A stretch of DNA of 34,107 nucleotides. It comes from Deinococcales bacterium (lineage in GTDB: Bacteria > Deinococcota > Deinococci > Deinococcales > JAAFIG01). Where the stretch lies: the NCBI GenBank assembly GCA_031414595.1, contig JANNVX010000073.1, forward strand, positions 1 to 34,107, read 5' to 3'. Within the stretch, counting starts at the first letter, position 1. Each line of letters opens with the position of its first letter. A program made the position numbers and the translations under genes. The notes below the pieces were generated by a model. That model did no database searches and was not told the DNA's origin. It saw only the letters and a program-made list of their open reading frames with translations. This document shows positions 4,860 to 26,027 of this stretch, in pieces.

Positions 4860-6068
4860 ATGAACTGGAAAACGATTTTCGCCCTGAGTTCTAGCACCGC
4901 GCTTGCCGTTACTTTGGGTATCTCGAGCGCCCAACAAACAAATGCTGTTAAAATTGGTAGTATTTTGCCTTTGACGGGGGCTTCAAGTGTTTCGGGTAAG
5001 GCTGCCGAGACGGGGTATCAATTGGCGCTTTCGGAAATCAATGCTTCGGGTGGCGTGCTGGGTAAGCCTTTGCAATTTAGTCTCGAGGATGATGCTTCTT
5101 CGCCAGCCACGGCAATTCAGACCTTCACGAAATTGTATACGGTAGATAAAGTTGATTTTTTCGCGGGTGGTTTTGGTAGTGGCAATGTGATTGCCATTTC
5201 AGGCGCAGCCAAGCAATTTAACGCCTTTATGTACACCCTTGGAGCAGCCGCCATTCCAGTTGAAGATGCTTACGCCACCTACCCGTATTTTTTCCATATT
5301 CATCCGTGGGCGTATTACAACAATCAAGCGGTGGTGGATTTCTTTAAGTTCTTGAGTCGTGCCAAAGGTGCAAAAAACATTGCGATTGCTTACGAAGATG
5401 GTGTCTTTGGTTCGGGCGCACCAATTTTTGCCGAACAAATCAAAAAAGAAGGCTTTAATGTCGTGCTGCTCGAGAAATTCAAAACTGGCACTGGACAATT
5501 TGCCCCGATTATCTCTAAAGCCAAAGGCTCGAATGTGGATATTTTTTACTGGATTGGTTACGACGCAGATGCCTTACCAATCGCCCAACAGAGTAAAGAA
5601 CTAAACTTTAACCCCGGAATTATTTATGGTGTGCCAGCCAGTTGGCCCGTTGGGTTTGAAAAGAATAAACTCAGTCAAGGGGTCAGTGGCTTAAGCCTAT
5701 GGTTGCCAACCAGCCCCTTAAAAGCCAGTAAAGAATTTGTGACCGCCTACACCAAGAAATTTGGCACAATCACCCAAGAATACATTGCGCCGCTTGCCTA
5801 TATACAACTTAAAACCCTTGCCGCCGCCATTAACCGCGCTGGCAGTACCGACAAAGACAAAGTGGCAGTCGAACTTGCCAAAACCGATATTTCCACACCG
5901 TTTGGCAGACTGACCTTCTCGCCAAGCCTGAAAATTAAAAATCAGGGTTTTAAGACCGGTGAATGGCTCAATTTCCAATTCCGCAATGGCAAGCGCGTAC
6001 CGATTTTTCCAATTCCAGTTGCCAGCGCGCCGATTATTTATCCTGTGCCAGATTGGAACTCGAGGTGA
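4860..6068 (+). CDS. ABC transporter substrate-binding protein (LivJ-like/PBP1 family)
   Basis: Signal peptide and 'VKIGSILPLTG...EINASGGVLGKPL...EDDASSP'. AGGAGG RBS precedes ATG 4860. Confidence 0.9.
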   Translation: MNWKTIFALSSSTALAVTLGISSAQQTNAVKIGSILPLTGASSVSGKAAETGYQLALSEINASGGVLGKPLQFSLEDDASSPATAIQTFTKLYTVDKVDFFAGGFGSGNVIAISGAAKQFNAFMYTLGAAAIPVEDAYATYPYFFHIHPWAYYNNQAVVDFFKFLSRAKGAKNIAIAYEDGVFGSGAPIFAEQIKKEGFNVVLLEKFKTGTGQFAPIISKAKGSNVDIFYWIGYDADALPIAQQSKELNFNPGIIYGVPASWPVGFEKNKLSQGVSGLSLWLPTSPLKASKEFVTAYTKKFGTITQEYIAPLAYIQLKTLAAAINRAGSTDKDKVAVELAKTDISTPFGRLTFSPSLKIKNQGFKTGEWLNFQFRNGKRVPIFPIPVASAPIIYPVPDWNSR

Positions 6069-7197: not shown

Positions 7198-7438
7198 ATA
7201 CCGCGTTCCAGCCCTCACCCAACTTCTTGCTCATAAGACAGCACCTGACGGGCTATTCGCGCTCGCTTAGGCTCGTTACCCTCATCCCGCCAAAAAGCGC
7301 GGGAGGCGACCACGCCCGAAGGTGCGCGTATGTGGTCAAGAAAGGGTTGTTCGGTTTGCCGCTTCATTCCTATCCTTCCCCCAAGGTGGAAGGTGTCGAG
7401 CTTGCGAGACGGATGAGGGGCTGACCGAATGCGATTTT
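7198..7438. repeat. Composite MITE/REP-like structured intergenic element
   Basis: Imperfect inverted ends ATACCGCGTTC...GAATGCGATT, internal inverted pair CCCTCATCC (7279-7287)/GGATGAGGG (7411-7419), and a nested 36-nt hairpin (7306-7341) also found at 2518-2554. Confidence 0.55.
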
Positions 7439-7511: not shown

Positions 7512-9236
7512 TTACTGGTTGCCAATACCAAAAATGTTCTCTGGGTCAAGGTGTTCTTTTGCGCCTTGTATCCAGTCTAGTCCAGCTTTACTTTTAACAT
7601 CCTTCACAAAACCAGCCCGTAATTTGCCAATCCCATGATGATGCGAAATACTCCCGCCATGCTCGAGGATCGTTTCACGGGCAGTATGCTCAAGCATCGC
7701 AAATTGTTCGGCGGGGTTTTTAACACCAGTTGCAAGGGTCGCAAGGTAAAAATAAACGGCTGCGCCAGTGTGGTAAAGCTGGGTCACACGCCATGAAATC
7801 ATTGGGTAGCCGGGTAAACCTAGGCGTTTATGTTCGGCGAGGACTCGAGTTTTGACGGCTTCGCACATCTTGGGTAAGTCTGTCCATGAAACACTGGTTT
7901 CAAAGGATTCTGCCATCACCCCAAAGCGCATAAAAAAATCGCGGATATAGGCTATAGCGAAGGTCAGTTGATACCCGCGTTTGCCGTTTTCACTGCCTGC
8001 TCTGAATCCTCGGAATTGACGCGCCAACTGTCCGACTCGAGCCGACTGCAACGCAGTTTCTTGCTTAGAACCTTCGTAAAGTAATGTACAAGCACACATC
8101 GAATTCGGGTCAAAACCAAGTGGTCCTGTCACCAATGCTCGCTCGAGTTTAGATTTGGTGGCTTTCCAACCCAAGGTTTCTGGTTTTAAGGCTTGTCCAA
8201 ACTGAAATTGCAAATTGTCCATCAGTCTAGCGCTGGCTGGGTATGGTGGGAATTTTGCCAGTTCACGCATGAATTCGTAGCCATCGGCAAAGTTCTTAAA
8301 AAGCACCGAATCAAATTGATGGACTTCGGGCAGGGCAAAAATTTTCACAAAGGCACTGGTGATAATCCCGAAGTTGCCCTCTGAACCAAATGCCAAGGTG
8401 CGTGGGTCTGTCCCCATGCTTTCACGCGGCATGGCACGCCCTTCGATTAAACCTTGGGCTGTGACCATGCGAATATCCAGCACAATATCTTCTATATTTC
8501 CATAGCGATTTTTTTTCATCCCACTCGAGCGCGTGGCAATCCAACCACCAAGGGTAGAAAATTCGTTGCTGTCTGGCTCATGCCCTATCGTAAACCCATG
8601 CTTCTCGAGTTCGGCTTGCAGGTCAGAACCCACAATTCCCGCTTCGACATGGGCAACACGGTTTTCCTTATCTATGCTAATAATTTTATTCATTCGGCGC
8701 ATATCTACCGAAGCAATTGGGCGCGGGTCATTGGGTGGGCAAGCCAGTGCATGACTGACATTCGAGCCACCACCAAACGGCACAAGCAGCACATGATGTT
8801 CTTTTGCCAGTTGCACCAGTGTTTGCACTTGGGTTTCTGCAATCGGATACAAAATAATATCTGGTACTCGAGTCAAACGCCCATGACGAATTGCATGAAC
8901 CTCCTCGAGCGAATGCCCATGCCCATGTCTGCGCCGTGCATTGTCTTCTTGGCTATAACCAATATTGCCAAGGGCGGCTATGAAAGCGGGTAATTCTCGA
9001 GCGGCAGAAATGGCGCTTAAGTCATGAACCTCGAATTCGGGCTGCAAAACCAAAGTGGTTTTCAGAATCCCATTCGCCCAAGTCAGCAAGTTTGGCAAGC
9101 GCTTACCTGACATTTCATAACGCGCCCCAATCAGTTTAACCCCGTCATTCTCGAGGTCAAGTCCAGAATCGGTGTACCCCCAACCATCAAAGCGCTCACC
9201 ACGAGGTACGGACGGATCAACGGCAAATTTCGTCAT
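7512..9236 (-). CDS. Alkyl-dihydroxyacetonephosphate synthase (AGPS/ADAS)-like FAD oxidase
   Basis: GWGY, HGH, PFGGG, 'GHEPDSNEFSTLGGWIATRSSGMKKNRYGNIED', GSEGNFGII, ESFETSV and terminal SHHHGIGK. Start placed at ATG 9236, with TATACT 7 nt upstream (leaderless). Confidence 0.85.
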   Translation of the reverse strand: MTKFAVDPSVPRGERFDGWGYTDSGLDLENDGVKLIGARYEMSGKRLPNLLTWANGILKTTLVLQPEFEVHDLSAISAARELPAFIAALGNIGYSQEDNARRRHGHGHSLEEVHAIRHGRLTRVPDIILYPIAETQVQTLVQLAKEHHVLLVPFGGGSNVSHALACPPNDPRPIASVDMRRMNKIISIDKENRVAHVEAGIVGSDLQAELEKHGFTIGHEPDSNEFSTLGGWIATRSSGMKKNRYGNIEDIVLDIRMVTAQGLIEGRAMPRESMGTDPRTLAFGSEGNFGIITSAFVKIFALPEVHQFDSVLFKNFADGYEFMRELAKFPPYPASARLMDNLQFQFGQALKPETLGWKATKSKLERALVTGPLGFDPNSMCACTLLYEGSKQETALQSARVGQLARQFRGFRAGSENGKRGYQLTFAIAYIRDFFMRFGVMAESFETSVSWTDLPKMCEAVKTRVLAEHKRLGLPGYPMISWRVTQLYHTGAAVYFYLATLATGVKNPAEQFAMLEHTARETILEHGGSISHHHGIGKLRAGFVKDVKSKAGLDWIQGAKEHLDPENIFGIGNQ

Positions 9237-9412
9237 GGGCAACAGTATACGCCTCTGGGTCAGGGCATCCAAGCAATAAATGAACGCAACGAATACCACG
9301 GCATAATCGTAGACCGCGCCCAGAGTATTCTCGAGAACATAAAAAGCATGAATGGGCGGGTAGCTCAAATAAAGGCTGTGGCTCGAGCTATAGAAGTAAG
9401 GCTCATCAGTCG

Positions 9413-9441
9413 TTGCTAAGGCAACCAGTTTGCGCTATAAT
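9413..9441 (+). promoter_or_regulatory. Sigma70-type promoter
   Basis: TTGCTA (9413-9418), 17 nt, TATAAT (9436-9441). Confidence 0.75.
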
Positions 9442-9444
9442 TAA

Positions 9445-9590
9445 CCAGTCGAGGTTGAACCCGCAATTGCGAAAGCAGACCACTTCAATGTCCGCCCTTC
9501 ACCCTTAAAAGGTGGTTAGGTTTCTAGCTGGGACTGGAATACACAAGAGACTGGGAGTAGTACAAAAAACCACTGTTACGGTGGTTTTTT
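9445..9590 (+). ncRNA. Putative structured small RNA, family not recognised
   Basis: Lies between a near-consensus promoter and an intrinsic terminator and has no ORF beyond a 6-codon one. Several nested helices are visible, including a GAAA tetraloop hairpin. Confidence 0.6.
9564..9590. terminator. Bidirectional intrinsic terminator
   Basis: AAAAAACCACTG-TTA-CGGTGGTTTTTT. Confidence 0.85.
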
Positions 9591-9641
9591 GTTAATACTG
9601 ACAGTGTTCACAGTCTTTCTCTAGTCAATTCACAAACCAAT

Positions 9642-9665
9642 AAAAAAACGCCCAGTATCTGGGCG
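9642..9665 (-). terminator. Intrinsic terminator (minus strand)
   Basis: Minus strand CGCCCAG-ATA-CTGGGCG followed by T7. Confidence 0.7.
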
Positions 9666-9677
9666 CTGCTTATTTCC

Positions 9678-9706
9678 AATATAACTTGTTATGCAGCGCG
9701 TGTCAA
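9678..9706 (-). promoter_or_regulatory. Sigma70-type promoter (minus strand)
   Basis: TTGACA (9706-9701), 17 nt, TATATT (9683-9678). Confidence 0.65.
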
Positions 9707-9891
9707 ATCTATGCACTTTAAGCTGTTCAGGACATGATTTTTGACTCAAATAAGTGGATTTTGCTGGTTGTTTTTGGAACATATTGGTTTACATCAGCCA
9801 TTCTTTAAGCAGGTAGCAAAGGCTATGGCTCGAGCAAAGAAGATGAGCAAAGCACATCCTGCGCGACTAAAAAAATTACACATCAAAAAAA

Positions 9892-11421
9892 TCATGAACC
9901 TATTTCATTGGTTATGGATTCATATTGAATTATTTCTTGTCCACCAGTCAACTTAAGCTCAAGATTCCCGTTACTTTTTTCAAAAGCTGAGCTTAAACTT
10001 TCGGCTTCTATTTGAATCCCATTGCACGAAAAGTCAACATGGGCATTTCTAAGTGTAATAATTTGCTTTAAGATTGGCTCTTCATTTGAAATTAAAACTG
10101 CCGAAAAAGTAATTTCAGGGATTATATTATTTGTGATAATGTGATTTTGAGAGCCTTCAAACAGCTTATCAATAACCACTGAAAGCTCCCCCTTAAATGG
10201 TGTTTCTGGTATATCAAAGGCACGAATCACTCTTTTATAGAGTTTGTGCATTTCTTGCAAGTAAACCGAGTCACCACTTGGGAACAATAGTTTATTTTCA
10301 ATAATTCGATTTTTAAGCAAAAGATTATTGGCTTTAAGAAAATCAACAATGAAGGAAAGCCAGCTAGATAATTGGGAACGTTTTTCAAGGTCTATTCCAC
10401 TCATTTCAAGAATACTTTTGTTGCTGGAAGGAAAACAGACATTTAACTCACACGTCTTAAGAAAAGCGGCAAGTAATTCAAGAACTGGAATATCATTAAA
10501 AACGAAAAATTCAACATTGTCTGACATTTGAAAATTTAAGTTACCAGTATGTTTAGTAGATAATCTACTTTGTGTTCCAATGAAGTTCAGACTTATATTA
10601 GGCTGCCTATAAATAACTTTAAGGCTAATATCACCAGTCAGAATGTCTGTTTCAAATAATGCAGGAATCTGCCACTGCAAATCTTTAATCTTAAATATAA
10701 AGTTTTCTTGGACTCGTTGCACAACTGGAATAATTTGAAGATTAGCTTTGCTAATAACGTCTATCTTAGCAATTTCATCAAGATGTTTAGGTATTGCTTT
10801 TGCACGAATATTTTGCCCATCTACACTTATTGTTCCAGATTGCCCCAGCCTTAACAAATTGCTAACTTCTAAAAGATGTTTTTGCCCTTTTGGTGTAAGT
10901 GCCTTAAAATTTAATTCTCCACCTGACCCAAGTTCAAAGCTATTTTCGCCTTCAAAACGCAAAATATATTGAGGTGTAGATGATTGACGGGAAGGTTTTT
11001 TCTGTGAAAGTCGCTGGTTTTCAAGAATACGATGATGTACAGCATCGGGTTTTTCATTTTCCAACATACTAACCAGAACATCAACGAATCGTTCTTTTTC
11101 TCTAGGTGATAAATCGAACCTTAAATGAATATGACGTAACACCATCCAAATATCCGTTTGAGTTTTTGCTATACGCAACCGACCTTGAATATAAGGCTCA
11201 TCAATGCAGGCAACAATTTCCAATCTTTTTCTTGCATTCAATTTTTCGGTTTTCTCAAGCAATCGTTTAGCACAATCAATAATACGTTGCTGCCTCTGAT
11301 TTTCTGCTCTAACTCTATTACCATCTTTGAATGCCGAAGATGCACCTTGGATAAAACCAGTTGCCTGCATAATACCCATAACAACAGGATTACTTAAAAC
11401 GCTTACCAGAGAATCAAACAC
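9892..11421 (-). CDS. Hypothetical protein, 509 aa, AT-rich, probably horizontally acquired
   Basis: Long ORF with AGGA upstream of a GTG start. No motif recognised, and no CTCGAG site seen in it. Confidence 0.8.
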   Translation of the reverse strand: MFDSLVSVLSNPVVMGIMQATGFIQGASSAFKDGNRVRAENQRQQRIIDCAKRLLEKTEKLNARKRLEIVACIDEPYIQGRLRIAKTQTDIWMVLRHIHLRFDLSPREKERFVDVLVSMLENEKPDAVHHRILENQRLSQKKPSRQSSTPQYILRFEGENSFELGSGGELNFKALTPKGQKHLLEVSNLLRLGQSGTISVDGQNIRAKAIPKHLDEIAKIDVISKANLQIIPVVQRVQENFIFKIKDLQWQIPALFETDILTGDISLKVIYRQPNISLNFIGTQSRLSTKHTGNLNFQMSDNVEFFVFNDIPVLELLAAFLKTCELNVCFPSSNKSILEMSGIDLEKRSQLSSWLSFIVDFLKANNLLLKNRIIENKLLFPSGDSVYLQEMHKLYKRVIRAFDIPETPFKGELSVVIDKLFEGSQNHIITNNIIPEITFSAVLISNEEPILKQIITLRNAHVDFSCNGIQIEAESLSSAFEKSNGNLELKLTGGQEIIQYESITNEIGS

Positions 11422-11723
11422 TACATTAATTCCTGTGGAGCAACAGAATAGTTATTCACACGAGCATTATATCAAAGTCAAAAATCTTTCGCCATCATAA
11501 GTGCCTATGGTTGCTCAGTAGAAGCGTAGGTTGGGCTTTGCCCAAATCCTTTATCTCGAGCTACACTGTTTTCTTGCGACTCTTACACTCAAGCTATATC
11601 TTTTTAACCCTGATTCGTGAACAAGCCCAGCGTTTGCTCGAGCATTTGCCTGATGTAATACTTGAAGTACGCGAGTTGTTGCCTATTACCAAGACGACGT
11701 TATCGTCAAATAGGAGGACAATA

Positions 11724-12011
11724 ATGCAAGAACCAATTACTCAATCCAGTGGGAATGTTTTTACAGACCTTGGTTTTGACCCTGCTGAAGCTGCAATTTT
11801 GCAATTGCGCTCAAAACTCATCAATGATTTACGTGGTTTTATTAACGCCAAGCAATTAACCCAAACCCAAGCGGTTGAACAACTCGGCATTGCACAATCT
11901 TGAGTTTCTGATTTAATGCGTGGTAAGCATGATAAATTTAGCTTAGAAATGCTAATTACGCTCGAGGCTCGACTTGGGCGTGAAATCAGGCTCGAGTTAG
12001 TTGAGGTTTAA
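11724..12011 (+). pseudogene. HigA-like XRE/HTH antitoxin with an internal stop codon
   Basis: MQEPITQSSGNVFTDLGF...LTQTQAVEQLGIAQS*VSDLMRGKHDKFSLEMLITLEARLG. TGA at 11901-11903 falls where Arg (CGA) is expected in 'Q.RVSDL.RGK'. AGGAGG RBS. Confidence 0.8.
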
Positions 12012-23135: not shown

Positions 23136-23369
23136 ATGCCAACAATTCTTGAAATTCCAGAAAACACCAAACGCCAAGCTGAACGTTACGCCAAAGCCAA
23201 GGGTATCTCGAGTAGTGAATTATTCACACAGGCAATGAATGATTTTCTGGCAAAAGAAAAAAGTATCACTGAACAACTTAATAACGTCTATACCGATTCT
23301 GACTCGAGACTAGACAGCAAATTACACAAAATACAAATGGCATCGTTACCCGCCGAGGATTGGTCTTGA
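23136..23369 (+). CDS. Ribbon-helix-helix antitoxin (ChpI-like)
   Basis: 'AERYAKAKGISSSELF..A...FL...SITEQLNNVY...EDW'. Overlaps the toxin gene. Confidence 0.8.
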   Translation: MPTILEIPENTKRQAERYAKAKGISSSELFTQAMNDFLAKEKSITEQLNNVYTDSDSRLDSKLHKIQMASLPAEDWS

Positions 23370-23704
23370 CTCGAGGTGAAATTTGGTGGGCAGATTTACC
23401 CGAAGCTGTAGCTGCTGAACCAGGTGGCAGACGACCAGTTCTGGTTATTTCCAACACTGATTTTAATAAAAGCCGAATTCAAACCGTGATTGTTGTGATT
23501 TTTACAACCAATCTGACTCGAGCCGACGCACCCGGTAATTTATTTTTAACCAGTCAGGAAACGGGCTTAACAAGAGATGGTGTGGTCAATGTTTCACAGG
23601 TTCTTACGGTGGATAAAGCATTTTTGACCGAGTACGTTTCGACAATGCCTGAAGAGTTGATGGGTTTAGTGGATGACGGCTTGCGATTAGCGCTAAAACT
23701 TTAG
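23360..23704 (+). CDS. mazF: PemK/MazF family endoribonuclease toxin
   Basis: RGEIWWADL, EPGGRRPVLVIS, FNKSRI, TTN, SQVLTVDK. Confidence 0.93.
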   Translation: MVLTRGEIWWADLPEAVAAEPGGRRPVLVISNTDFNKSRIQTVIVVIFTTNLTRADAPGNLFLTSQETGLTRDGVVNVSQVLTVDKAFLTEYVSTMPEELMGLVDDGLRLALKL

Positions 23705-23925
23705 CGCCGCGAGAGGGTGAGAATTTTGGTAGGATGGTCTCGAGCAGGGAAGTTGTGGGCAAAGCCCACCCTACTAAACTCGAGAGAGGGAAAGTGTACG
23801 TGGGCGAAACCCTACAAAACTCGAGAGAATGAAAATTTTGGTATGATAGGTCTCGAGAAGGAAATTGTGGTCTGAGACCAGACCACCCTACTAAACTAAG
23901 ATTATAAACGGAGGTGAGGTTTTTA

Positions 23926-24747
23926 ATGGAAACTCAGAAAGACAAGTATTATTTTGATTATCTTTTAAGTCAGCATAAAATCTACTCGGAAGAAGTTCGT
24001 TTATACCTTGGTTTTGCAGCAGCTTCGCTGGTTGCTTTTACTACAATAATTGGATTTATGTTCAACATTAGTAAATCAGATAATTTCCTTGCTATCTCAA
24101 TTCCAGTGGTCATTGGTTTGTATGGTTCGTTTTTATTTTTATGGTTTTATAATATTTTGCTACTTAATTTTCAAATTCGCGAGTTTGAAATAGAAATTTG
24201 TGTATTCTCAAGTAAAAAGAAATCTCCATCTTTTATTGAAGTACGAAGTAATGAGCCTTATCTCTCAAGACGAGAGTTTTTTACATTTCTGTTATCTGTG
24301 GTAACACTTGTTTTTGTAGTTCTTTATTCAACTTCTTTAGCTTTTGGATCTAAAAAAATGACAAATTTTTTAACTATTCTACAAATATATAACGAAACAT
24401 CGGCTTTTTTGCTTACCTTTTTTGCAATTATTTTAGTTCTATTGTGTTTTTATACTTATTTTTATGAATATAAGTTTAGCAAAGAAGGCTCGTACAAAAT
24501 TATTATCTATGTATTTACCATATCTTTATTTTTTAGTTTGAGTTTAAATCATTTTTTTAGTATAGAAAATATCCAAAATGGAATTCAATTTGGCGCTTCA
24601 TTGGTAAACAGTCAGTTATTTTTATACTTCGCGTGGAGAGGTTTTGAAGGTTACAAATTAAAAAAATCTAAATACTTAGTAAAATATAAAAATAATGTAA
24701 AAGCAACCATAAGACGATGCCGCAAAAATACAAAAATACAAAATTGA
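23926..24747 (+). CDS. Hypothetical multi-pass membrane protein, very AT-rich
   Basis: About six hydrophobic segments and a Lys-rich tail. GAGG RBS before ATG 23926. No CTCGAG site seen. Confidence 0.75.
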   Translation: METQKDKYYFDYLLSQHKIYSEEVRLYLGFAAASLVAFTTIIGFMFNISKSDNFLAISIPVVIGLYGSFLFLWFYNILLLNFQIREFEIEICVFSSKKKSPSFIEVRSNEPYLSRREFFTFLLSVVTLVFVVLYSTSLAFGSKKMTNFLTILQIYNETSAFLLTFFAIILVLLCFYTYFYEYKFSKEGSYKIIIYVFTISLFFSLSLNHFFSIENIQNGIQFGASLVNSQLFLYFAWRGFEGYKLKKSKYLVKYKNNVKATIRRCRKNTKIQN

Positions 24748-24782
24748 ATTATATAGAGCTAGAATTCCATCGGAGTCCTTAA

Positions 24783-26027
24783 ATGAATTATCTCGAGTTA
24801 CAACAAAAAATCCTCCCCGAACTTCATCTTCTTGCCACCAAAGCTGGGGTGGAAAACGCTAAAGACCTCGAAAAAGAGGCTTTGGTACTGGCTATTCTCG
24901 AGAAACACGCGCTTGAGGACGGGTTTAGTCTGGCGCAGGGGTTTTTAGAAATCTCCGAGGATGGTTATGGCTTCCTGCAAGATAGTTTGCTCACCCCTGA
25001 ATCCAGAAACGTGATTGTTTCGGCTGGCTTAATTAAGCAGTTCCAACTTCGCACCGGCGATTATGTGGTTGGCGTGGCACGTCCGAGTAAAGAAATCGAG
25101 CGTTTTAACTCGATGATTCGGGTTGAAGCGGTCAATTCCCAAGACCCTGCTGCCGCCGCCCTGCGTCCCAAATTCGATGACCTGATTCCCGAACATCCAG
25201 ACAGCCAAATTATTCTCGAGACCGATGCGGCTACTGTTGCCTCGAGGGTCGTGGATTTACTCGCCCCAATTGGTCGAGGGCAGCGTGGGCTGATTGTCGC
25301 GCCGCCCAAAGCGGGTAAGACTACCCTTCTAAAGCGAATTGCCAACAGCATCACCGCCAATCACCCAGAAATTAAAGTGATTGTGCTACTGGTAGACGAG
25401 CGCCCCGAAGAAGTCACCGATTTTAGGGAGAGTACCACTGCCGAAGTCGTAGCAAGTACCTTCGATGAGCCACCAGAGAACCATGTGCGGGTTGCCGAGT
25501 TTGTCCATGAACGCGCCCGCCGCATTGTCGAAGAAGGCGGTCATGTTGTTATCCTGCTCGACAGCATCACGCGCTTGGCTCGAGCGAATAATCTGGTCAC
25601 GCCAGCCACAGGGCGCACCCTGTCGGGTGGTTTGGACAGCAACGCGCTCTATTTCCCAAAGCGTTTTTTGGGGGCTGCCCGTAAAATCCGTGACGGTGGC
25701 AGCTTAACCATTTTGGCAACTGCCTTAGTCGAAACTGGCTCGAGAATGGATGATGTGATTTTCGAGGAATTCAAAGGCACAGGCAATATGGAACTCCATT
25801 TAAGCCGCCGTCTCGAGGAACGCCGAATTTTCCCAGCCATTGATATTCTTAAATCGGGTACGCGCCGCGAAGAATTGCTATTACCCACTGATGTCCTGCA
25901 TAAAATGTGGTTGCTGCGAAAAGTCATTTCTGACATGGATCCCGCTGAGGCAATGGAAATGCTGCTCGAGCGCCTGAACCGCACCGACAGCAACAAAGAA
26001 TTCCTATCGCAACTCGGTGGCGGCTAA
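24783..26027 (+). CDS. rho: Transcription termination factor Rho
   Basis: [65 protein letters not shown]. Confidence 0.98.

Follow-up and report, generated by a model that had tools for sequence, protein, structure and literature searches.

What is the short transcription unit, apparently without coding capacity, that lies at positions 9413-9590 of contig JANNVX010000073.1, and which gene does it work with? The contig, a stretch of 34,107 nt (assembly GCA_031414595.1) that was analyzed at its full length and is called the window below, comes from an uncultured Deinococcales bacterium known from a metagenome-assembled genome (MAG), here G000. This assembly and those of most of its relatives are fragmented, and absence from such incomplete genomes does not show loss. 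An earlier reading of the window (the original prediction) had described at this site a promoter, a stretch with no real open reading frame (ORF) and a strong terminator, and had taken the whole for a novel RNA gene. Our analysis led us to conclude, with high confidence, that 9446-9590 is a real gene for a structured small RNA, equipped with its own promoter and terminator and belonging to a family that adjoins genes for YjaZ-family proteins, both in Deinococcota and on alpha-, beta-, and gammaproteobacterial plasmids. RNAs of the kind found in the window are called type B in this text, whereas type A refers to the canonical SroH-like RNAs.

Promoter, transcript, and terminator

The transcription unit consists of the following parts.

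9413-9441, plus strand: sigma-70-type promoter of the RNA (-35 box TTGCTA at 9413-9418, 17-nt spacer, -10 box TATAAT at 9436-9441)
9446-9590, plus strand: small RNA of about 142-145 nt, type B, yjaZ-associated (covariance models R1 and R2; covariation)
9564-9590, both strands: bidirectional intrinsic terminator hairpin (13 bp predicted, flanked by an A-run and a U-run; fold and stem covariation at alignment columns 137-158)

The promoter was found as predicted and agrees with the consensus at 10 of 12 positions. Of 33 promoter bases, 30 are identical in the sister genome G005, and an extended -10 box at an equal distance was seen by eye in most homologs. Since a promoter scan returned five promoter-like sites compared with a mean of 2.5 in shuffled sequences, the promoter alone is weak evidence. 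Transcription probably starts at about 9447-9449. The lack of a real ORF was borne out, as none of at least 40 aa was found within 9413-9590, and the frames of 22-31 aa present there are either on the opposite strand or begin before the point at which transcription is likely to start. The strong terminator was likewise recovered, as a predicted 13-bp hairpin with a U-run, and in relatives the stop codon of the partner gene described below falls 0-3 nt past this hairpin (a geometry seen at loci L034 and L036 and in E. coli).

The original prediction had matched the RNA to no known family, and this holds for Rfam, tRNA, and tmRNA. Rfam 15 gave no match at the gathering threshold across the entire window, its permissive mode (E up to 10) returned only noise at 9350-9700 (best E 0.41, on the terminator), and ARAGORN reported neither tRNA nor tmRNA. 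Tandem Repeats Finder produced 0 rows for 9200-9900, and every alignment shows the RNA as one unit. A Y RNA-like RNA working with an ortholog of Ro60 (Rsr) had been named as a weaker alternative. Deinococcus has Ro60 and Y RNAs, and the organism is a Deinococcales bacterium, which is what speaks for this idea. We give it practically no credence, as neither Y RNA nor YrlA was matched in Rfam when E-values up to 10 were allowed, no TROVE/Ro60 domain was present in the 30 window ORFs scanned, and the conserved neighbor of the RNA is a YjaZ-like gene.

Structure and covariation of the RNA family

The comparative model assigns the following elements to the window RNA.

9454-9459 / 9484-9489, plus strand: P1 helix, GUUGAA/UUCAAU, supported by covariation
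9468-9470 / 9475-9477, plus strand: P2 hairpin, UGC-GAAA-GCA with a GAAA loop
9491-9493 / 9554-9556, plus strand: P3, a long-range helix of the comparative model
9494-9496 / 9519-9521, plus strand: P4 helix, closing a variable hairpin (9500-9503 / 9511-9514)
9522-9527 / 9534-9539, plus strand: P5 hairpin, UUCUAG/CUGGAA, with its loop at 9528-9533
9540-9553, plus strand: conserved single-stranded stretch between P5 and position 9554

In the type-B consensus, P1 is a 9-bp 5' helix that encloses P2, and P2 carries a tetraloop in most copies (GNRA-type by eye). A CCGCC box follows P1/P2, and the flanks of this box form both P3, which pairs to GGG near the 3' end, and P4; the hairpin closed by P4 is present in some copies and absent from others. 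The 3' part is composed of P5 with the loop CCAGGA, a single-stranded AAUA-CCAAGAG stretch, and finally the terminator.

A check of homologs for covariation, proposed together with the original prediction, did reveal compensatory changes. An unfitted alignment of 13 copies (MAFFT/RNAalifold) predicted 34 pairs, 17 of them with such changes. With 30 sequences fitted to covariance model R2, including members from Deinococcus and from proteobacterial plasmids, 92.3% of cells pair, whereas slid partners give 33-43%. Both sides vary in 20 of the 25 pairs, 0 of 500 shuffles reach the observed values, and covariation was also seen with 27 sequences; the sequences being related and fitted to the model, these figures lean toward structure. 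The window RNA scored 90.5 bits with model R1 (E 1.4e-22), which its own sequence had helped to train, and 68.7 bits with R2 (E 4.8e-15), while non-training sequences were matched at E 1.6e-14 by R1 (Deinococcus) and at E 3.1e-13 by R2 (Ralstonia), the weakest at 2.7e-3, all of these E-values being derived from short calibrations. With significant R1 and R2 scores and covariation-supported P1-P5, the window RNA is a type-B RNA.

Between the window and G005, the RNA is identical at 144 of 145 positions. Identity is lower around it, at 90.2% for the neighboring oxidase coding sequence, 68% for the upstream spacer, and 82% for the right flank. The lone difference in the RNA, A9487 to G, keeps its P1 pair.

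The helices that had been paired by eye in the original prediction fared unequally. GUUGAA/UUCAAU (P1), the UGC-GAAA-GCA hairpin (P2), and the CACC/GGUG hairpin are kept in homologs through compensatory changes. The closing helix CCAGUC (9445-9450)/GACUGG (9549-9554) does appear in the single-sequence fold, but it is not conserved in the 12 other aligned homologs, and its CCAGUC strand begins 4 nt after the -10 box and is probably partly untranscribed. The two conformations proposed through a second GACUGG rest on this same unconserved strand. Likewise, the three-way junction built from GUCC/GGAC and GUUAG/CUAGC gives way to P3, P4, and P5 in the comparative model.

The partner gene and its deletion in the window

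Every other copy that was first collected, except the one at L022, is accompanied by an ORF of about 180 aa that runs convergently to the RNA and has its stop codon 0-3 nt from the RNA 3' end. The encoded proteins are mutually homologous (34% identity and E 9e-29 for two paralog types compared). The paralog from L034 matched the NCBIfam model NF007263 ('stationary phase growth adaptation protein YjaZ') at E 2.1e-17 over positions 6-174 of 179 and the partner protein from G005 matched it at E 5.6e-6, both with scores far under the equivalog cut-off of 324 bits. In the ESM Atlas, the G005 partner was placed among PF27200 (YjaZ) clusters, with a feature score of 0.95 and a structural template modeling (TM) score of 0.84.

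From a FAD-linked oxidase gene through the RNA, the window and G005 are collinear and 90% identical, and G005 continues with an intact YjaZ-like gene. At the corresponding place the window retains the following.

9603-9605, no strand: deletion junction, at which 514 bp of G005 (positions 2083-2596 of L036), comprising most of the YjaZ-like gene, are missing (blastn and alignment)
9606-9629, minus strand: remnant of the YjaZ-like gene, its first 8 codons, with ATT in place of the start ATG and TAG as codon 3 (alignment to the G005 gene start)
9647-9667, minus strand: G+C-rich hairpin with a U-run in the leader of the deleted gene, conserved in G005
9678-9706, minus strand: promoter TTGACA-17-TATATT of the deleted YjaZ-like gene (11 matches out of 12; G005 keeps the two hexamers)

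The window RNA is thus an orphan copy, its YjaZ-family protein gene having been removed by a 514-bp deletion.

On the minus strand of 9647-9706, the terminator-like hairpin comes almost directly after the promoter of the deleted gene, and both are kept in G005. This hairpin could be an attenuator that holds the YjaZ-like gene tightly off, or the site could give rise to a very short transcript.

The original prediction had suggested that the RNA forms a protein-RNA module with a convergent ORF of 509 aa (9892-11421, minus strand), referred to below as the 509-aa orphan. What stood of this claim is that a stand-alone non-coding RNA belongs to a protein-RNA gene pair; the partner, however, is the YjaZ-family gene, and the two proteins show no similarity (E 0.11). 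That the RNA is a subunit of a module with the 509-aa orphan is very improbable in our view. The proximity and convergent orientation that favor it are found in one window only, whereas none of the 18 other family genomes has a homolog of the 509-aa orphan and 12 of them have the RNA, the ORF lies in an insertion with 34-40% G+C and free of CTCGAG, and G005 has the RNA, 99% identical, beside a different neighbor.

Distribution and linkage

BLAST detected copies of the RNA in 9 of the 19 genomes of the family as defined by GTDB, and covariance model R2 extended this to 24 places in 13 of the 19, with 1-3 per genome. Seventeen of these 24 copies have the protein gene next to them, six do not, and one is undetermined because it lies at a contig end. 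The genome of the window contains a second RNA copy with 73% identity on contig C49; in total it holds, besides the window, two more type-B pairs (contigs C49 and C14) and one canonical SroH-like pair (contig C104). At L002 (contig C49), positions 990-1500, the roughly 500 nt before the second RNA copy contain no ORF of at least 60 aa. This stretch, which lies downstream of a protein that is SufB-like by eye, may be a decayed gene.

Viewed from the protein side, NF007263-like genes occupy 26 places, spread over 21 of the 364 Deinococcota genomes, and 25 of these places adjoin an RNA (22 of type B and 3 of type A); the exception is truncated by an insertion sequence. At L059 and L060, broken protein genes stand beside intact RNAs. 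One further locus, L093 (contig C292 of G009), has three type-B RNAs within 5 kb, at 2360-2464, 5330-5432, and 7216-7301, and only the middle one has an adjacent YjaZ-like fragment, which is truncated at its N terminus.

Across the order, BLAST returned only terminator-sized matches beyond the family. A motif scan of 185,579 species genomes yielded 12 stretches, nine of which are in Deinococcales or in Deinococcota MAG records. The three matches in Clostridia were rejected as chance, since the aligned position lies in closely similar sequence and no RNA-like flanks were seen by eye.

Using tblastn, we found YjaZ-like genes on 580 plasmid records with the protein from C104 as the query and on 267 with a type-B partner, and no YjaZ-like gene among 50,697 phage records. 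Fourteen plasmid loci were fetched. According to the models, a type-B RNA occupies the expected convergent site on plasmids of Fluviibacter, Burkholderia, Ralstonia, Erwinia, Agrobacterium, and Pantoea, and the type-B match at a Xanthomonas plasmid locus is weak (E 0.55). Type-A RNAs are present on plasmids of Klebsiella quasipneumoniae, Proteus, and Thiothrix, with a variant in K. pneumoniae (E 3e-4 with R3, the type-A model), and a Pseudomonas savastanoi locus has a promoter and a terminator by eye and no significant model match; several of the type-A assignments and promoter calls were made by eye.

Some of these plasmid loci have features of their own. On the Burkholderia and Ralstonia plasmids (L076 and L077), the yjaZ-like gene is preceded, with a 4-nt overlap, by a gene for a helix-turn-helix regulator of about 200 aa, which may be a third component in some lineages. 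Very small ColE1-type plasmids from Proteus (L083, 2,462 bp) and Klebsiella (L070, 7.6 kb) carry little besides the yjaZ-SroH pair, and on L083 the yjaZ gene is annotated as two pieces and the RNA is intact.

Of 5426 complete E. coli genomes, 3741 carry the yjaZ-sroH islet; 3722 of these have 80% or more of it and 19 only part, which means that the two genes come and go together. A different layout was found on a Vibrio parahaemolyticus plasmid (L080), where a type-A RNA at 655-824 (R3, E 2.4e-11) lies upstream of the yjaZ-like gene (856-1407) on the same strand and ends 31 nt before its start codon without any overlap. The pair therefore survives a change of layout. The usual position of the RNA is taken on this plasmid by a convergent gene for a hypothetical protein of 115 aa.

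These layouts bear on a possible action in cis, in which the RNA would be an antisense transcript that uses the terminator overlap to govern the yjaZ mRNA (its 3' end, its stability, or read-through), like a type I system with a 3' overlap. Such an action agrees with the symmetric terminator and with the 0-3 nt between the stop codon and the RNA 3' end, which were observed in Deinococcales, E. coli, and most plasmids examined. Yet the overlap amounts to a hairpin of about 27 nt only, and about 115 nt of covarying structure together with the invariant loops are outside it; furthermore, the Vibrio RNA lies upstream on the same strand with no overlap, orphan RNA copies are kept, and the protein is a soluble one of about 180 aa, not a small membrane peptide. 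The txpA/RatA and bsrG/SR4 pairs of B. subtilis are type I systems with a 3'-overlapping antisense RNA, and the genes studied here resemble them in being convergent and overlapping at their 3' ends. They differ in that the overlap is limited to the terminator and missing in Vibrio, and in that the partner is not a small (under about 60 aa) hydrophobic peptide. We consider regulation in cis to be quite improbable.

Relation to E. coli SroH

Knowledge of SroH in E. coli K-12 goes back to 2003, and that of YjaZ to 1990. The two genes, yjaZ at 4189786-4190325 (plus strand) and sroH at 4190327-4190487 (minus strand), have the same geometry as type-B pairs, and contig C104 of the window's own genome encodes a closer YjaZ homolog (120 bits) together with a convergent RNA whose likeness to E. 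coli SroH is visible. Type-B RNAs share with SroH (RF00372) a size of about 140-160 nt, a promoter of their own, and a position convergent to a homologous YjaZ-family gene of about 180 aa; in E. coli, the 3' end of SroH is 1 nt from the yjaZ stop codon.

When six type-A sequences (one each from E. coli and a Thiothrix plasmid, two from small enterobacterial plasmids, and two from Deinococcales) were folded jointly, 16 of 34 pairs showed compensatory changes. In the resulting fold, P1 surrounds P2, a long-range helix surrounds a short hairpin, and one more hairpin and the terminator complete the structure. Both types thus have a 5' helix around a small hairpin (with a tetraloop in most copies, by eye) followed by a long-range helix around a short hairpin, and both contain a GAAUA-CCA(A)GA motif, a terminator, and two CCAAG-like elements each (by eye). 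It is in the 3' half that they differ: type B has P5 and then a single strand, whereas type A has an internal region and a CCAGAA/UUCUGG hairpin.

The Rfam model RF00372 (gathering threshold 80 bits) scored 201 bits on E. coli sroH as a control and matched nothing in the window, nor anything at E up to 10 on 9350-9700 or in six related loci. This model is narrow and almost structure-free, and it was built from close enterobacterial sequences. Neither of the type-B models, R1 and R2, matched type-A RNAs; R3 gave weak matches to type B, to which the terminator contributed (E 0.0078 for Burkholderia L076 and E 0.63 for the window), and a joint alignment of types A and B (MAFFT/RNAalifold) produced no consensus. 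We find it somewhat more probable than not that types A and B are diverged versions of one RNA.

In the accessible passages of papers that cover SroH and YjaZ (PMC5389530, PMC13572404, PMC6172242, PMC11551758, PMC3318445), the function of SroH is called unknown and the htrC designation of yjaZ is said to have been retracted. Our literature search, which included bioRxiv and had subscription journals and supplements outside its scope, yielded no function for the yjaZ-sroH pair, no such pair outside enterobacteria, no type-B RNA, and no toxin-antitoxin proposal for the pair. The new elements are the type-B family with its structure, the orphaning deletion, the orphan asymmetry discussed below, the tandem layout in Vibrio, and the RelE-like lead. 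Type B represents a second, sequence-divergent RNA family in the genomic role of SroH, with a structure backed by covariation. For annotation, it deserves an Rfam entry, or RF00372 could be rebuilt with structure.

The YjaZ-family protein

In an alignment of 79 sequences (G005 numbering), H23, H52, S84, and F126 are invariant, and R74, R80, and Y122 are among the near-invariant residues. The family is large, with 1328 representatives at E up to 0.001 among 1.84 billion cluster representatives. The proteins have 170-186 aa, and an AlphaFold2 model of the partner shows a mixed alpha/beta protein (predicted local distance difference test 90.7, predicted TM score 0.86). Searches with the partner protein in PADLOC, PHROGs, and a Pfam copy that did not contain PF27200 returned no match, toxin models included. 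The best hit of a sequence search in the PDB had E 0.67, and Foldseek found nothing in the PDB at E up to 0.001 with the partner model.

The structure search in the Atlas retrieved RelE, Gp49, PBECR2, and DUF4258 clusters at TM 0.38-0.43. In comparison with toxins of the RelE/ParE superfamily and the BECR fold (BrnT, RelE, HigB, YoeB, CdiA-CT), the region from about residue 43 to 155 of the partner model can be overlaid on toxin chains over almost their full length (70-85 aligned residues), and the partner family has invariant His and near-invariant Arg residues. A RelE/BrnT-like fold of YjaZ, as suggested by the model, is a consistent but weak lead and not a fold assignment.

Possible function of the pair

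What the data establish is that the RNA has a structure, that selection acts on it, and that it is coupled genetically to YjaZ-family genes. We infer that this coupling is functional and operates at the level of RNA and protein. Such a role is favored by the following observations: (i) co-duplication has given several diverged pairs in one genome, (ii) the linkage holds across phyla, on plasmids, and through a change of layout, and (iii) 6 of 24 RNAs are without a protein gene, compared with 1 of 26 protein genes without an RNA, these counts mixing related genomes. Together with the broken protein genes beside intact RNAs, this orphan asymmetry is the pattern expected of a neutralizing RNA and a potentially harmful protein.

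Tentatively, then, the RNA may be antitoxin-like or an inhibitor of the YjaZ protein, a proposal that we would put somewhat below an even chance. It would bind the YjaZ protein and hold it inactive, or would otherwise control a protein with a RelE/BrnT-like RNase fold, in an arrangement resembling a type III antitoxin made of a single structured RNA. The CCAAG/CCAGG motif, which occurs twice (in the P5 loop and in the single strand after P5), would be the likely contact or a pseudo-substrate. An orphan RNA would be harmless, or would still protect against a paralogous YjaZ, and selection would act against an orphan protein.

Type III toxin-antitoxin systems (ToxIN, CptIN, TenpIN) consist of a gene for a small RNA with tandem repeats and a protein of about 170-200 aa with an RNase-like fold. 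The yjaZ pairs are similar in that a small RNA gene is tightly linked to the gene for a protein of this size and possibly of such a fold, and in that RNA-only remnants are tolerated. Moreover, the order in Vibrio (RNA, terminator, and protein gene on one strand) is the classic arrangement. In contrast, the type-B RNA is one structured unit without tandem repeats and is usually convergent to its partner, and the YjaZ protein has no sequence match to the toxin models of PADLOC or Pfam.

Alternatively, the RNA could be an ordinary trans-acting riboregulator that pairs with mRNAs through the CCAAGAG stretch or the P5 loop as its seed, the YjaZ gene merely traveling with it on a small mobile islet. 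This would suit the six of 24 RNA copies that persist without a protein gene and the strong constraint on the orphan in the window. According to the accessible part of PMC6172242, SroH binds kbl mRNA in vitro and is under-characterized, and that of PMC5389530 reports an envelope-stress phenotype for an sroH deletion. Near-obligate adjacency to YjaZ across phyla, plasmids, paralogous duplications, and the Vibrio reordering would be unexpected for a regulator of core mRNAs, however, and the targets would need to be shared between Deinococcales and the proteobacterial hosts of the plasmids. We regard a riboregulator of this kind as unlikely, albeit the most serious of the competing explanations.

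Taken as a whole, our best explanation is that a type-B yjaZ-associated RNA, orphaned by deletion, acts on the YjaZ protein, and we see the chance of this being right in all its parts as just short of even. Several points weigh against it. The folding energy of the single sequence is unremarkable (z = -1.80, with 10 of 200 shuffles folding equally well), so that it is covariation that carries the case for structure. The link between types A and B is not statistically significant by covariance models, and the fold evidence for YjaZ as an RNase toxin is weak. Linked genes are co-inherited anyway, and the kinship of the genomes counted affects the orphan figures as well. Finally, an E. coli sroH deletion is viable and has only envelope-stress sensitivity, according to passages in two papers.

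A broader version of the proposal, which we offer as speculation and consider doubtful, is that yjaZ/SroH-type pairs constitute a widespread, unrecognized class of toxin-antitoxin-like or defense modules of RNA and protein, in which a single structured RNA directly neutralizes an RNase of the RelE/BrnT fold; the window would then contain an orphan antitoxin left after loss of the toxin gene. If true, this class would extend over Deinococcota, Proteobacteria, and many plasmids, with an uncharacterized gene pair of E. coli K-12 among its members. The co-duplication of the pair, the clean deletion of a protein gene with its RNA kept, and the rearranged version in Vibrio are natural experiments that point to a functional RNA-protein pair, the function of which is directly testable in E. 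coli.

The low-GC island and the CTCGAG motif

The palindrome CTCGAG occurs 171 times in the 34,107 nt of the window, compared with 3.64 expected (sd 1.76, maximum of 9 in 100 shuffles), or about once per 200 nt in genes and spacers alike. Highly iterated as it is, it is reminiscent of cyanobacterial HIP1 or of uptake sequences. The motif is missing from two gaps, 9835-11554 and 23858-24791, and since both coincide with low-GC segments, it distinguishes native from foreign DNA.

The low-GC island at 9750-11950 (34-40% G+C) contains the 509-aa orphan and a gene for a 130-aa HTH_37 protein (11511-11903, plus strand). No Pfam, NCBIfam, or PHROG family was found for the 509-aa orphan, and PADLOC gave a single, weak match, to its NERD+UvrD model (E 0.0079, 13 bits). 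Because it has no homolog in 18 relatives, a G+C content of 34-40%, and no CTCGAG, its segment is a foreign insertion beside a variable spot. In G005, the corresponding side of the RNA is occupied by an AriAB-like (PARIS) defense gene (E 1.1e-130), and the island looks like a variable hot spot for defense or accessory genes.

Elsewhere in the window, a MazF/PemK-type toxin gene (23360-23704, E 9e-27) adjoins a 277-aa ORF that has no family. The two, at 23360-24747, lie in a segment with 32% G+C and free of CTCGAG, located just upstream of rho.
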